Part shown: in pieces, positions 40,805 through 44,594 of the stretch
Layout of the letters: the number at the start of each line of letters is the position of its first letter
Numbering within the stretch: position 1 is the first letter of the stretch
Source of the DNA: a virus
Lineage: Duplodnaviria; Heunggongvirae; Uroviricota; Caudoviricetes
DNA: 64,000 nucleotides
Direction: 5' to 3' (one strand)
IMG/VR virus record: IMGVR_UViG_3300044716_000631
The notes under the pieces: model-generated
Database searches by the model: none
Told to the model about the DNA's origin: nothing
The model's input: the letters and a program-made list of their open reading frames with translations, nothing else
Translations under genes and position numbers: made by a program

Positions 40805-40911
40805 GAATGTAATGGCTACTGAGGTGTCGACTCGCTAGGTCGGTAATTTCGCTCTTTACGTTCCTATCTTCCCCCAAAAGCTTGGTCGCCACAGGAACTT
40901 CCATCACATTC
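40805..40911 (-). ncRNA. structured RNA element, copy 1 (unknown family), immediately 3' of tRNA-Asn
   Basis: ~105-nt element duplicated at 44490-44594; conserved core flanked by closing helix and internal hairpin that differ in sequence but keep pairing (GAATGTGATGG/CCATTACATTC vs ACACACTGG/CCAGTGTGT; CGAC/GTCG vs TGCC/GGCA); G-U pairs valid only on minus strand. Confidence 0.5.
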
Positions 40912-40915
40912 AAAC

Positions 40916-40990
40916 TGGCTCCTCAAGATGGATTCGAACCACCGACCAGGCGATTAACAGTCGCCGGCTCTACCGCTGAGCTATTGAGGA
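40916..40990 (-). tRNA. tRNA-Asn (GUU)
   Basis: Cloverleaf by eye; anticodon loop CUGUUAA; GGTTCGAATCC T-loop; encoded CCA. Confidence 0.8.
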
Positions 40991-41033
40991 ATAAACTCTT
41001 ATTTTCTTAGTCTACACTATATATTAATTAATG

Positions 41034-41228
41034 TCAACCAATATTTTTTAGTTCACTAAGAATTTCTTTATAATGACGAGCAAGAATTTCGCGAATATCT
41101 TGCTTCTGCTTTGGTGTTACGAATTGAAAATCAAAATATAGATTGCCATTCATCGAAGATTCGCCAGCTGCATTGCTAGCATCTTCTAGAAAATCGCTCG
41201 TGTGCATTTGTGATTTAGTAGTAATCAT
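41034..41228 (-). CDS. hypothetical protein (64 aa)
   Basis: ORF between tRNA genes. Confidence 0.3.
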   Translation of the reverse strand: MITTKSQMHTSDFLEDASNAAGESSMNGNLYFDFQFVTPKQKQDIREILARHYKEILSELKNIG

Positions 41229-41247
41229 AACAAACTCCTAAGAAAAA

Positions 41248-41324
41248 TGGAGCCCCCGACAGGATTCGAGCCTGTAACCTTTCGCTTCGTAGGCGAGTGC
41301 TCTATCCAGTTGAGCTACGGAGGC
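41248..41324 (-). tRNA. tRNA-Arg (ACG)
   Basis: Anticodon loop CUACGAA; good acceptor/T-arm; CCA encoded. Confidence 0.75.
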
Positions 41325-41329
41325 ATAAA

Positions 41330-41404
41330 TGGTACCGGATGACGGGATTGAACCGCCGACCCTCTCGGTGTAAACGAGACGCTCTACCGCTGAGCTAATC
41401 CGGC
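41330..41404 (-). tRNA. tRNA-Val (UAC)
   Basis: Anticodon loop UUUACAC; canonical arms. Confidence 0.75.
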
Positions 41405-41412
41405 ATTAAACT

Positions 41413-41495
41413 TGGTACGCCTAGAGGGACTCGAACCCCCACGCTTTCGCACTGGTACCTAAAACCAGCGTGTCTACCAATTCCACCATAGGCGC
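41413..41495 (-). tRNA. tRNA-Leu (UAG), type II
   Basis: 83 nt, long variable arm; anticodon loop UUUAGGU. Confidence 0.65.
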
Positions 41496-41496
41496 A

Positions 41497-41572
41497 TGGT
41501 GCCTTCGGACGGATTCGAACCGCCGACACCTGGTACTTCAGACCAGTGCTCTACCAACTGAGCTACAAAGGC
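41497..41572 (-). tRNA. tRNA-Phe (GAA)
   Basis: Anticodon loop CUGAAGU. Confidence 0.8.
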
Positions 41573-41795
41573 AAATAAAAACTCCTCAACAAATGCGTTT
41601 CCTAGGACACATAAGTTGCCGCCTGTCGTTTCAGGTCAGGACTTAAACCAGAGGTCGGAGTCAATGTAAGTGACCACCTGCAGTGTGCCTTGATTGCTTA
41701 CTTCCGGACGTTGCAATCTTCCCAGATAAAAACAATGTTGCAACAATGTTTTTATCACTTCACGGGTTCAGCCGAGGTGGTCTAGTGGCCTATAT

Positions 41796-41870
41796 TGGTG
41801 GAGGATAACGGGATCGAACCGTTGACCTTCTGCGTGCAAGGCAGACGCTCTCCCAGCTGAGCTAATCCCC
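41796..41870 (-). tRNA. tRNA-Ala (UGC)
   Basis: Anticodon loop CUUGCAC; acceptor GGGGATT. Confidence 0.8.
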
Positions 41871-42021
41871 CCAATATCTTTAAACACAATTTTAATATTC
41901 GAAACTTTATATATCTCTGCTAAAACGGTTTCATCTGTAAACGCCGCACGATTCAAAAGTGTATCGGACATAAACATTACACATTCTGCAGATTCGCTTC
42001 TCATATTCACATTTCTATCTT

Positions 42022-42096
42022 GGTGACACAGGATGGATTCGAACCATCGACTGATGGCGTATGAGACCATTGCTCTACCACTGAGCTACTGTGCCG
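42022..42096 (-). tRNA. tRNA-Met (CAU), elongator-type
   Basis: Anticodon loop CUCAUAC; G1-C72. Confidence 0.7.
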
Positions 42097-42103
42097 TTAT
42101 TCT

Positions 42104-42179
42104 GGTGCCCCCACGAGGACTCGAACCCCGGACCTGATGATTACAAATCAACTGCTCTACCAACTGAGCTATAAGGGCA
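42104..42179 (-). tRNA. tRNA-Thr (UGU)
   Basis: Anticodon loop UUUGUAA. Confidence 0.75.
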
Positions 42180-42184
42180 TTAAA

Positions 42185-42262
42185 TGGTCGGGAATGTAGG
42201 ATTCGAACCTACGACCTCCTGCTCCCAAAGCAGGCGCGCTGACCAGACTGTGCTAATCCCCG
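42185..42262 (-). tRNA. tRNA-Pro (UGG)
   Basis: Anticodon loop UUUGGGA. Confidence 0.7.
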
Positions 42263-42311
42263 TTATATGCTATCTATATATACATTCTAAATTAAAGTAC
42301 ACAAAAAAATT

Positions 42312-42387
42312 TGGATGCCCCTCCAGGGCTCGAACCTGGACTTTTCGGAATCAAAATCCGACGTGTTGCCTATTACACCAAGGGGCA
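42312..42387 (-). tRNA. tRNA-Gln (UUG)
   Basis: Anticodon loop UUUUGAU; U1-A72 as in bacterial tRNA-Gln. Confidence 0.7.
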
Positions 42388-42394
42388 ATAAAAA

Positions 42395-42923: not shown

Positions 42924-43124
42924 TTAACCGATGTAGATCCGATACTCATCGGAATCTACTGGCGCACCTATAGTACGACGTTCGACATAGTAGCGCTGGA
43001 TGAACCGATCGCCATCACGAGTATACACACCGTGAGCAGTCCGTGCTTCATCTTCCGACGCATACACGCCAAGGAGCACCGAACCTTCGTAATCCCATTC
43101 ACCTAATAATGCAAAAACTTCCAT
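42924..43124 (-). CDS. small hypothetical protein (66 aa; internal start of listed ORF)
   Basis: MEVFALLGEWDYEG...; ATG overlaps upstream stop (TGATATGG). Confidence 0.35.
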   Translation of the reverse strand: MEVFALLGEWDYEGSVLLGVYASEDEARTAHGVYTRDGDRFIQRYYVERRTIGAPVDSDEYRIYIG

Positions 43125-43125
43125 A

Positions 43126-43269
43126 TCACATCTCCATAATTTCAAATCGAGCATCAAATGCATTATCCAATACTGCCACAAATTCATCATAATCAGCACC
43201 TGCTTCTTCGCAGGCTTTACGCATCAACCGAACCATGTCGGCAATCATTTCTTCGCGGCTGAGAATCAT
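43126..43269 (-). CDS. small hypothetical protein (47 aa; not in ORF track)
   Basis: MILSREEMIADMVRLMRKACEEAGADYDEFVAVLDNAFDARFEIMEM; upstream TGTACA-N17-TAGTAT promoter. Confidence 0.35.
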   Translation of the reverse strand: MILSREEMIADMVRLMRKACEEAGADYDEFVAVLDNAFDARFEIMEM

Positions 43270-43352
43270 AACCATTTCCTTTAGCTTATTATTCATACTA
43301 CCAAAGATTTGATAAAATGTACACTAAAAAATGCACGGTATGAAAAATAATT

Positions 43353-43430
43353 TGGTAGGGGTAGTGGGACTCGAACCCACACTGTGCGAATTTTAAGTCC
43401 GCTGACTCTAACCAATTGGCCTATACCCCC
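43353..43430 (-). tRNA. tRNA with anticodon UAA (Leu-decoding) but type I (short variable arm)
   Basis: Anticodon loop CUUAAAA; good acceptor and T-arm; only 5-nt variable region and 3-bp D-stem. Confidence 0.5.
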
Positions 43431-43431
43431 A

Positions 43432-43506
43432 TGGGGTGATCGACGGGTATCGAGCCCGCAACTCCGGATTCACAATCCAGCATGTATCCATTAACACCTC
43501 GACCAC
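43432..43506 (-). tRNA. tRNA-His (GUG) with encoded G-1
   Basis: Anticodon loop UUGUGAA; extra 5' G pairing with discriminator C. Confidence 0.7.
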
Positions 43507-43510
43507 CATA

Positions 43511-43596
43511 TGGCGGAACGTCAGGGAGTCGAACCCTGTCTACCCTAAGGTAGTACACCTTAGCAGGGTGCTGCATTACCGTCCTGCCCACGTTCC
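43511..43596 (-). tRNA. tRNA-Ser (GCU), type II
   Basis: 86 nt; anticodon loop CUGCUAA; long variable arm. Confidence 0.7.
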
Positions 43597-43602
43597 TAAA
43601 CT

Positions 43603-43677
43603 TGGTAGCCCGAAAGGGTTTCGATCCCTCTTCTCCGCTGTGAAAGAGCGGTGTCCTAGCCATTAGACGACCGGGCC
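43603..43677 (-). tRNA. tRNA-Glu (UUC)
   Basis: Anticodon loop CUUUCAC. Confidence 0.7.
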
Positions 43678-43678
43678 A

Positions 43679-43753
43679 TGGAGCGGGTGAGCGGATTCGA
43701 ACCGCCGACCACTTCGTTGGCAACGAAGAGCTCTACCACTGAGCTACACCCGC
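43679..43753 (-). tRNA. tRNA-Gly (GCC)
   Basis: Anticodon loop UUGCCAA. Confidence 0.8.
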
Positions 43754-43762
43754 ATTAAAATT

Positions 43763-43834
43763 TGGTTGCGGGAGGGCGAATCGAACGCCACCGAAAGGTT
43801 ATGAGCCTAACATGCTACCGTTACAATATCCCGC
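43763..43834 (-). tRNA. divergent tRNA-like gene with CAU anticodon (Met/Ile2/initiator candidate)
   Basis: Anticodon loop CUCAUAA; weak anticodon stem; possible C1-A72 mismatch; 72 nt. Confidence 0.35.
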
Positions 43835-43841
43835 GTTAAAC

Positions 43842-43915
43842 TGGTGCGGACATCGAGAATCGAACTCGAGACCTCTGGGTGGAAGCCAGATACGTTACCT
43901 CTACGCCATGCCCGC
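43842..43915 (-). tRNA. tRNA-Gly (UCC)
   Basis: Anticodon loop CUUCCAC. Confidence 0.75.
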
Positions 43916-43917
43916 AA

Positions 43918-44009
43918 TGGAGGAAGCGGTGGGATTCGAACCCACGGTACCCGCAAAGGTACGTCTGATTTCAAGTCAGGTGCTTTAAACCGCGCTCAGC
44001 CACGCTTCC
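43918..44009 (-). tRNA. tRNA-Ser (UGA), type II
   Basis: 92 nt; anticodon loop CUUGAAA; long variable arm. Confidence 0.7.
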
Positions 44010-44340
44010 CTATATTTCTAGATTTGTAGGTATCTAATTGAGAATCGCAGTTACTACAAACAAATCTAAGATTTTCTAATCGATTGTCATTATTGATTCC
44101 ATTTATATGATCAAGAATTAATGGCATTGGTTTACCATTCCATTCTGGACCTATACCACAACACCCGCAGTTATATTCAATTTTTTGATCTTGAATAATG
44201 CGTTTTTTGATATGGTGTCTGGCATATGTAGAATTTTCTACAAATACTTCATCATCAGGACGTCTAATAGAAGCATGATATTCTGTAAGAATACCTTTTT
44301 TACCTCTATTCCAGGGTGTAGAACCTTTTAATGCTGGCAT
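43996..44340 (-). mobile_element. HNH homing endonuclease gene inserted in tRNA array (~114 aa)
   Basis: Start at internal Met MPALKG of listed ORF; HNH core EWNGKPMPLILDHINGINNDNRLENLRFVCSNCDSQL; stop lies 14 nt inside 5' end of tRNA-Ser(UGA). Confidence 0.6.
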
Positions 44341-44405
44341 ATATTTTCTCCTCTGCTTATTTATAAGCATTGGTATTTCTAACATATGCAATCGATAAAA
44401 AAAAA

Positions 44406-44481
44406 TGGTGCGTCTAGTAGGCTCCGACCCTACGACCTCACCCTTATCAGGGGTGTGCTCTACCAACTGAGCTATAGACGC
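44406..44481 (-). tRNA. tRNA-Ile (GAU)
   Basis: Anticodon loop CUGAUAA; perfect 7-bp acceptor; unusual T-loop GUCGGAG. Confidence 0.65.
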
Positions 44482-44489
44482 AATATTAA

Positions 44490-44594
44490 ACACACTGGCT
44501 ACTGAGGTGTTGCCACGCTACCGGCAGTAATTTCGCTCTTTACGTTCCCATCTTCCCCCAAAACGCTTGGTCGCCACGGGAACTTCCAGTGTGT
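44490..44594 (-). ncRNA. structured RNA element, copy 2, between tRNA-Trp and tRNA-Ile
   Basis: See copy 1 (40805-40911); flanked on both sides by tRNA genes, so RNase P/Z processing would release it. Confidence 0.5.

Follow-up and report, generated by a model that had tools for sequence, protein, structure and literature searches.

The transfer RNA (tRNA) islands of phages already host RNAs that resist explanation, among them RNA C and RNA D of T4, GOLLD, ROOL, and manA. In the T4 record, rnaD and rnaC (species 2 and 1; 119 and 139 nucleotides (nt)) are annotated as small stable RNAs; encoded on the strand of the tRNAs, they come straight after the final one of the array, tRNA-Arg, with gaps of 1 nt and 6 nt, and we know of no function for them. 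GOLLD and ROOL are orphan structured RNAs of phages and prophages that are often found near tRNA islands and possibly co-transcribed with them (PMC5737381, PMC12286853). The manA RNA, a structured RNA known from T4-like cyanophages and from marine samples, is presented as a riboswitch candidate in Weinberg 2010 (PMC2864571). Theta ribozymes, minimal relatives of the hepatitis delta virus (HDV) ribozyme, adjoin phage tRNA genes on their 3′ side, and a role in the processing of 3′ trailers has been proposed for them (PMC10879173). Here we analyze a 64,000-nt stretch of viral DNA (IMG/VR record IMGVR_UViG_3300044716_000631), hereafter the window, whose tRNA array carries two copies of an element of approximately 105 nt. 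This element is a member of a genuine, apparently uncatalogued family of structured RNAs in uncultured T4-like phages with large tRNA arrays, and it joins the orphan RNAs already known from phage tRNA islands, without homology to any of them.

A preliminary description of this DNA had placed the two copies at 40805-40911 and 44490-44594 on the minus strand, and had reported a conserved core with compensatory changes in the closing stem and in an internal hairpin (CGAC/GUCG versus UGCC/GGCA). Both copies are present with the quoted sequences, their core is near-identical, and all of these helices are fully paired. Their parts, located from the sequence and all on the minus strand, are:

40805-40911: copy 1 (type A), 107 nt
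40901-40911 with 40805-40815: closing stem P1 of copy 1, GAAUGUGAUGG/CCAUUACAUUC
40899-40900: J1/2 of copy 1, AA
40891-40898 with 40860-40867: P2 of copy 1
40882-40885 with 40874-40877: P2b of copy 1, CCAA/UUGG, loop GCUU
40856-40859 with 40843-40846: P3 of copy 1, GUAA/UUAC, loop AGAGCGAAA
40839-40842 with 40828-40831: P4 of copy 1, CGAC/GUCG, loop CUAGCGA
40816-40827: J4/1 of copy 1, ACACCUCAGUAG, 12 nt
44490-44594: copy 2 (type B), 105 nt
44586-44594 with 44490-44498: closing stem P1 of copy 2, ACACACUGG/CCAGUGUGU
44576-44583 with 44544-44551: P2 of copy 2
44567-44570 with 44558-44561: P2b of copy 2
44540-44543 with 44527-44530: P3 of copy 2
44523-44526 with 44511-44514: P4 of copy 2, UGCC/GGCA, loop GGUAGCGU
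44499-44510: J4/1 of copy 2

Taken with their flanks (126 nt each), the copies share 86% identity; it is mainly in the closing stem and the internal hairpin that they differ. The 22-mer GGAACGTAAAGAGCGAAATTAC, common to both, occurs exactly twice in the window and finds no match in 100 shuffles, even at 3 mismatches. Our covariance model R1 scores 126.2 bits (E 2.8e-36) on copy 1 on the minus strand versus 5.4 bits on the plus strand, and 126.9 bits (E 1.7e-36) on copy 2, the sequence of which recurs identically in a metagenome contig (L073; such numbers are our labels for related loci). The gain in single-sequence folding energy over shuffles is modest (z = -2.5 and -1.5 for the two copies), so that the case for a structured RNA rests on the homologues.

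These homologues were sought with sequence patterns and with the covariance model, the latter as the preliminary description had proposed, and amount to about 100 instances, comprising 56 distinct sequences in 68 distinct genomic contexts from viral and metagenome contigs. A family of this size with compensatory changes strongly supports a structured RNA. An exact search with the 22-mer retrieved 41 IMG/VR contigs, two other patterns added 5 further true members (their remaining matches being due to chance), and a pattern anchored elsewhere on the element found 55 metagenome loci, each of them upheld by a covariance-model score of 92-139 bits. Across the family, the element measures 105-143 nt and has four or five helices; each related locus holds one copy within the available stretch, compared with two in the window. 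Many of the contig identifiers suggest lake samples of the Joint Genome Institute. Among 185,579 bacterial and archaeal species, scanned with one genome each, there was one true match, on a 24.8-kb contig of a metagenome-assembled genome with a 16-tRNA array, which is probably a mis-binned phage; this supports an element confined to phages. More distant members did not appear: a pattern with free P2, P3, and P4 stems returned known contigs only, and a covariance-model scan of 78 loci around homologues of gp44 (the clamp loader, which we take the probe open reading frame (ORF) 48951-49886 to encode) returned known copies only.

The preliminary description did not recognize the family, and neither do the catalogues. 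No Rfam 15 model (of 4227) overlaps either copy at the gathering threshold and none matches at E≤10 on 5.9 kb or on 466 nt of the region; blastn of the element against 50,697 GenBank phages gave no match, and the core sequence was not found in the literature. The element may be among the 8,495 unnamed candidate RNAs predicted from IMG/VR (PMC10690425).

The window itself is from a T4-like phage, encoding a family-B DNA polymerase, a DnaB-like helicase, an Rnl1-type RNA ligase, and other phage-type proteins. By its polymerase, the closest GenBank phages are Synechococcus myoviruses (about 51% identity); at the DNA level, no GenBank phage matches the region beyond single tRNAs. Relatives of its gp44 are encoded in at least 595 IMG/VR contigs, the best 80 of them at ≥79% amino-acid identity, which indicates that the clade is abundant but uncultured.

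The structure was tested on a MAFFT alignment of 53 distinct sequences. The fold consists of the closing stem P1 and three hairpins, and is given here below the sequence of copy 1:

GAAUGUGAUGGAAGUUCCUGUGGCGACCAAGCUUUUGGGGGAAGAUAGGAACGUAAAGAGCGAAAUUACCGACCUAGCGAGUCGACACCUCAGUAGCCAUUACAUUC
(((((((((((..((((((((.....((((....))))......))))))))((((.........))))((((.......))))............)))))))))))

P2 has an internal loop and a tip, P2b, that is mostly capped by a GNRA loop (GCGA is the commonest, with GUGA and GCAA also seen); P3 (GUAA/UUAC) carries the loop AGAGCGAAA and P4 the loop NGUAGCGN, and the 12-nt strand ACACCUCAGUAG leads from P4 back to P1. In this four-helix fold 95.3% of the cells are paired; shifting the partners by 1-3 columns lowers the figure to 36-44%. 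Two-sided changes are seen at 16 pairs (204 cells), and none of 500 shuffles attains the covariation score. Helix by helix, the covariation is as follows:

P1: 10 of 11 pairs covary, with about eight unrelated sequence types
P2: two covarying pairs (U-A to C-G and C-G to U-A)
P4: 4 of 5 pairs covary, one position showing six pair types while the loop stays fixed

P1 ranges from 9 to 22 base pairs (bp) across the family, extending to 20-22 bp in L042 and L045, and the tip of P2 accommodates an extra hairpin (L006, L015, L024, L031) or a full replacement (L041). P3 never varies except for one G·U and P2b (CCAA/UUGG) never covaries, so both are predicted helices. Mutual information is confined to P1, P2, and P4; outside these helices it points to no pseudoknot, and manual inspection of complementarity yielded only 3-4-nt matches unsupported by the variants.

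The pair G22·U51 of P2 is G·U in 53 of 53 sequences, and many further G·U pairs occur in P1. The polarity that the preliminary description had deduced from G·U pairs therefore holds, and the RNA strand is the tRNA strand. Single-nucleotide insertions and deletions in the loops exclude a coding function. Together these data contradict the simplest explanations of the repeat, namely a degenerate tRNA or tRNA-like RNA, a chance repeat, a DNA-level signal, or a small coding gene, which we regard as scarcely credible. It is true that the four helices follow a cloverleaf-like order in a tRNA slot and that a 51-amino-acid ORF overlaps copy 1. However, neither ARAGORN nor the Rfam tRNA model (RF00005) calls the element, P1 is 9-22 bp rather than a 7-bp acceptor stem, 12 nt separate P4 from P1, and the loops are unlike those of a tRNA, with no T-loop or anticodon loop; the G·U pairs work on one strand only, the loop indels would break any frame, and the shared 22-mer is absent from the shuffled sequences.

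Outside the stems there is nearly no variation, loops and junctions being almost invariant. The element can be compared with its surroundings as follows:

element core: mean pairwise identity 0.91, 57 of 93 columns invariant
element P1: mean pairwise identity 0.53
tRNA isoacceptors of the same loci: mean pairwise identity 0.60-0.84, 13-41 of 76-96 columns invariant

The flanking protein genes are about 74-82% identical to those of the window. The unpaired core is thus more conserved than the neighboring tRNAs, and since the core stems have diverged with compensation while the loops stayed fixed, this invariance reflects selection on the RNA, beyond recent common descent. Constraint at this level is usually a sign that an RNA catalyzes a reaction, binds a ligand, or contacts a very conserved partner.

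Both copies lie on the same strand as the window's array of 25-27 tRNA genes, as called by ARAGORN and the Rfam tRNA model, which also place their immediate neighbors:

40916-40990, minus strand: tRNA-Asn(GTT) with encoded CCA, the last tRNA of the array
44628-44702, minus strand: tRNA-Trp(CCA), upstream of copy 2
44406-44481, minus strand: tRNA-Ile(GAT), downstream of copy 2

As first described, copy 1 lies 4 nt 3′ of tRNA-Asn, and copy 2 lies between tRNA-Trp and tRNA-Ile. The spacer after tRNA-Asn reads GUUU, and copy 2 is 33 nt from tRNA-Trp and 8 nt from tRNA-Ile. Throughout the family, the element is always on the tRNA strand. A same-strand tRNA precedes it in 64 of the 68 distinct contexts, at ≤10 nt in 28, and in 27 contexts a tRNA at this distance is tRNA-Asn or tRNA-Met; a tRNA follows within 15 nt in 16 contexts, mostly Ile, Met, or Thr (tRNA-Ile in 8). 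The element is thereby shown to occupy a tRNA-like slot in the arrays, type A copies typically coming after the last tRNA.

Placed distally in the cluster, on the strand of the tRNAs and 4 nt after tRNA-Asn, copy 1 has the position of rnaD and rnaC in T4. The likeness to the species 1 and 2 RNAs noted in the preliminary description extends to this placement after the last tRNA but not to homology: with filters off, R1 reaches at best 8.4 bits (E 0.43) over the T4 tRNA region, and not at rnaC or rnaD, whose predicted folds differ from that of the element, rnaC ending in a T-arm-like hairpin. The short words GUAGCG and GGAACGU, common to the element and T4, lie in different structural contexts and were treated as chance. 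Like GOLLD and ROOL, the element is phage-borne and adjoins tRNA islands; unlike these RNAs, which measure 580-800+ nt, have many junctions and pseudoknots, and form multimeric cages, it is about 105 nt long and matches no Rfam family.

Based on this context, the best-supported proposal, to which we give an even chance, is that the element is a separate noncoding RNA (ncRNA) gene, excised from the tRNA precursor as a stable RNA. The element would be co-transcribed with the tRNAs and cut from the precursor by host tRNA-processing nucleases, with RNase P acting at the downstream tRNA and an endonuclease and exonucleases acting after the upstream one; at tRNA-Ile, the RNase P cut would define the 3′ side of the released copy 2 RNA. 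P1 would clamp and protect both ends to give a stable small RNA, the invariant junction core of which could bind a conserved partner, whether protein, RNA, or small ligand, and its activity may be connected with the set of tRNAs and ncRNAs (manA, GOLLD) that the array encodes. Release by tRNA processing fits the same-strand position and the tRNA-like spacing seen across the family.

The same tight spacing could also be read as that of a new self-cleaving ribozyme class, which would trim the polycistronic transcript, releasing either the preceding tRNA at its 3′ end or the following RNA (manA, GOLLD, or a tRNA) at its 5′ end. The small size, variable closing stem, and invariant junction core of the element would suit this role, as would its two copies in one genome, its many different neighbors, and its distances of 4 nt from the preceding tRNA-Asn and about 5-10 nt from the following manA; the theta ribozymes adjoining phage tRNAs provide a precedent (PMC10879173). 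However, theta ribozymes, found in gut phages, have a nested double-pseudoknot fold and a cleavage site abutting the tRNA, whereas the ends of the element are closed by P1 and the tRNAs encode CCA followed by a 4-nt spacer. None of the hammerhead, HDV/theta, twister, twister-sister, hatchet, pistol, and hairpin ribozyme families matches at E≤10 in the 466-nt search, and the sequence points to no cleavage site. As new self-cleaving classes are, to our knowledge, rare, we consider a ribozyme fairly unlikely.

Downstream of copy 1 lies a second structured RNA:

40527-40695, minus strand: manA RNA (RF01745), 110 nt downstream of copy 1, Rfam 58.8 bits (gathering threshold 55.2)

It precedes a conserved 49-amino-acid ORF (40359-40508, minus strand; MWRIWAKALGEK...) and a peroxiredoxin-like ORF (39760-40365, minus strand). 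The commonest downstream neighbor of the element is manA: 48 of 104 instances have it downstream on the same strand at a distance of 1 kb or less, and for 21 of them that distance is about 10 nt or less. Its fold and sequence are different (192-position model), and the element gives no manA score. The window manA has no match among GenBank phages, so cultured cyanophages are not reached that way. The two RNAs are also lost together. Close relatives with 4-11 tRNAs, whose gp44 homologues are 85% identical to that of the window, have the same synteny, with a small ORF before tRNA-Asn and, in most, the peroxiredoxin gene after it; the element is absent from all 6 checked and manA also from the 5 scanned with Rfam. 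The element is present in every related locus seen with 19-27 tRNAs. It is worth mentioning that the small-array relatives keep the 49-amino-acid and peroxiredoxin-like ORFs without manA. In three loci (L015, L024, L076) a GOLLD RNA lies 455-470 nt downstream of the element. The GOLLD matches themselves (RF02032, 178-197 bits; L015 10818-11280, L024 9676-10136, L076 10116-10579, and L042 1962-2428) lie in tRNA arrays, and each contains a called tRNA.

The association with manA, itself a riboswitch candidate (PMC2864571), and their joint absence from five small-array relatives raise the question of a cis-acting, ligand-sensing leader that would control read-through downstream, alone or in tandem with manA. 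The element does look like a riboswitch aptamer in its closing P1, its covarying stems, and its almost invariant junction and loops. It differs from riboswitches in having no expression platform, in that neither a terminator nor a visible structure masking a ribosome-binding site follows P1 and no terminator-like site adjoins either copy, and in having no consistent class of downstream gene; many copies are flanked by tRNAs, with a tRNA ≤15 nt downstream, and copy 2 stands between two of them. For these reasons a leader of this kind appears distinctly unlikely.

Between copy 2 and tRNA-Trp, and upstream of tRNA-Asn, two transcription-related motifs are found:

44608-44624, minus strand: boxA-like motif UGCUCUUUGAAAUUGUU, between tRNA-Trp and copy 2, from sequence
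41009-41037, minus strand: sigma-70-like promoter match TTGACA-17-TAGACT, just upstream of tRNA-Asn, from a consensus scan only

The first of these, which we term boxA-like, is found 15-20 nt before type B copies, and in many related loci it recurs after tRNA-Trp or promoter-like sites, whether the element is present or not. Its consensus is G(C/U)UCUUUGA(A/C)AUUGUU (e.g., L007 4765, L076 8908, L118 3824), and it also appears directly after sigma-70-like promoter matches heading tRNA arrays. E. coli genomes carry a median of 7 occurrences of a sequence containing GCTCTTTAACAA, about 100 nt ahead of 16S genes. This distribution suggests that phage tRNA operons may undergo an rrn-like, Nus-factor antitermination. 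The promoter match may start a unit composed of tRNA-Asn, copy 1, manA, and the ORFs; TTGACA stands at the same offset upstream of tRNA-Asn in L004, L096, and L122, which is not evidence of function. A further sigma-70-like match, TTGACA-16-TATAAT (12/12), lies upstream of the array at 46855-46882 (minus strand).

One could then view the element as an accessory RNA of a boxA/Nus-type processive antitermination complex, placed like lambda boxB or HK022 put. The spacing of type B copies would be in line with this, as would the order promoter-like site, boxA-like motif, element, tRNA-Ile in L072, L118, and L038. Nevertheless, the motif stands in the Trp-Ile spacer even where the element is missing, type A copies come straight after a tRNA and lack an upstream boxA, and known nut or put RNAs are far smaller than the element, all of which makes this role highly improbable.

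A natural variant without the core is found after tRNA-Asn in four small-array relatives (L146 6505, L161 7585, L165 14005, and L166 11149), which read GUUU-GAGUGUAAUG-AUUACAUUC at this point. Both strands of P1 are kept as an 8-bp hairpin and both flanks are homologous to the filled sites, while precisely the 87-nt core is absent, and the junction shows no direct repeat. The empty site reflects either a precise deletion or a core that acts as a cassette inserted into a hairpin loop. Taken further, the element would be a selfish or modular cassette, an 85-87-nt core inserted into or excised from hairpin loops whose conservation serves its own spread. The exact empty site argues for this, as do the approximately eight unrelated P1 types in different contexts and the nature of the arrays, which are mosaics of reshuffled tRNA and ncRNA modules. 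On the other hand, no transposase, integrase, or reverse transcriptase is consistently adjacent, this is the only empty site found, none being seen for the other P1 types, and the divergence of P2 and P4 with compensation around fixed loops indicates long-term selection on the RNA fold. We therefore hold such a cassette to be improbable.

Returning to the separate ncRNA gene released from a tRNA precursor, several observations weigh against it. Fold, strand, constraint, and context are established by the data above, but it is from context alone that we infer release, stability, and action in trans. In L072, L118, and L038, where a promoter-like site and the boxA-like motif precede the element, its 5′ end would not arise from tRNA processing; and type A copies, with manA and the ORFs downstream, could belong to a longer leader rather than to a free RNA. 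The four relatives that keep the P1 hairpin without the core could point to spread as a cassette, and the near-invariance could in part reflect such spread if it was recent. Moreover, since the loops are invariant, neither a pseudoknot nor a partner can be deduced from them.

In a broader proposal, which we put forward as doubtful, the invariant four-helix core may represent a new functional RNA class, a self-cleaving ribozyme or a ligand-binding RNA, with which phages mature or regulate their large tRNA/ncRNA operons. It might, in addition, be a cassette that spreads into hairpin loops; the exact pair of filled and empty sites after tRNA-Asn suggests as much. Whichever role applies, the element adds to the RNAs of phage tRNA islands a small, experimentally tractable member of 105 nt with a well-supported fold, and its degree of conservation and natural core-less variant make it a good experimental target. 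The linkage to manA and GOLLD, the presence or absence in large versus small arrays, and the core-less variant are handles on these RNAs in general, and an Rfam entry would let automated annotation recognize the element in phage and metagenome contigs.

Several other relationships were considered and set aside. Type B P1 matches the anticodon arm of tRNA-Ala(GGC) in L002, which would suggest that P1 derives from a tRNA anticodon, but about 0.15 such matches are expected by chance. A k-turn in P2, a T-box-like UGGN bulge, sarcin-ricin, 5S and 16S rRNA words, and an anti-Shine-Dalgarno mimic (CACCUC) are inconsistent across variants or at chance level. For pairing in trans by J4/1 (ACACCUCAGUAG), two sites on the gene strand that are complementary at 11 of 12 positions lie inside ORFs at 14471-14482 and 21530-21541 (minus strand), their counts not clearly above chance; one of these sites is inside the gene for the Rnl1-type RNA ligase.

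The array holds further candidate RNAs and modules. The 109-nt spacer between copy 1 and manA (40696-40804, minus strand) has a closed three-hairpin fold (-35.3 kcal/mol, z -2.5) and no Rfam match; it is about 80% identical in 15 related loci, and the same sequence is visible in L044. At 42388-42484 (minus strand), between tRNA-Gln and tRNA-Lys, a cloverleaf with anticodon GUA, a long variable arm, and an atypical T-loop, AUCGAUA, is called by neither ARAGORN nor the Rfam tRNA model, in a slot that holds tRNA-Tyr(GTA) in related loci. A closed structure of about 115 nt at 42562-42700 (minus strand), with the T-arm-like hairpin CCGAGUUCGAUCCUCGG, may be a tRNA-like RNA and has no Rfam match. 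The motif AAGGCACACUNNNNGGNGGUCACU..., at about 41630-41700 (minus strand) between tRNA-Phe and tRNA-Ala and also in L176 (6470-6580), lies in small-array relatives in the leader of the small ORF and peroxiredoxin gene, the usual place of manA, and may be another uncatalogued RNA. A conserved module of about 70 nt, AAGCAGUACCGUCUGCUGAAC...AAACAAAACGG, comes after tRNA-Asn in L008, L018, L019, L022, and L097, and before it in L005, L023, L033, and L125.

Just downstream of copy 2, between tRNA-Ile and tRNA-Ser, an ORF of about 110 amino acids (44010-44340, minus strand) is, judging from its sequence, presumably an HNH-type homing endonuclease; it is absent from L016, where tRNA-Ser directly follows tRNA-Ile. 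Elsewhere in the window, a 686-amino-acid protein (32869-34929, minus strand) combines a CHASE2 sensor domain with an adenylate/guanylate cyclase domain (Pfam E 5.6e-40 and 2.2e-18).

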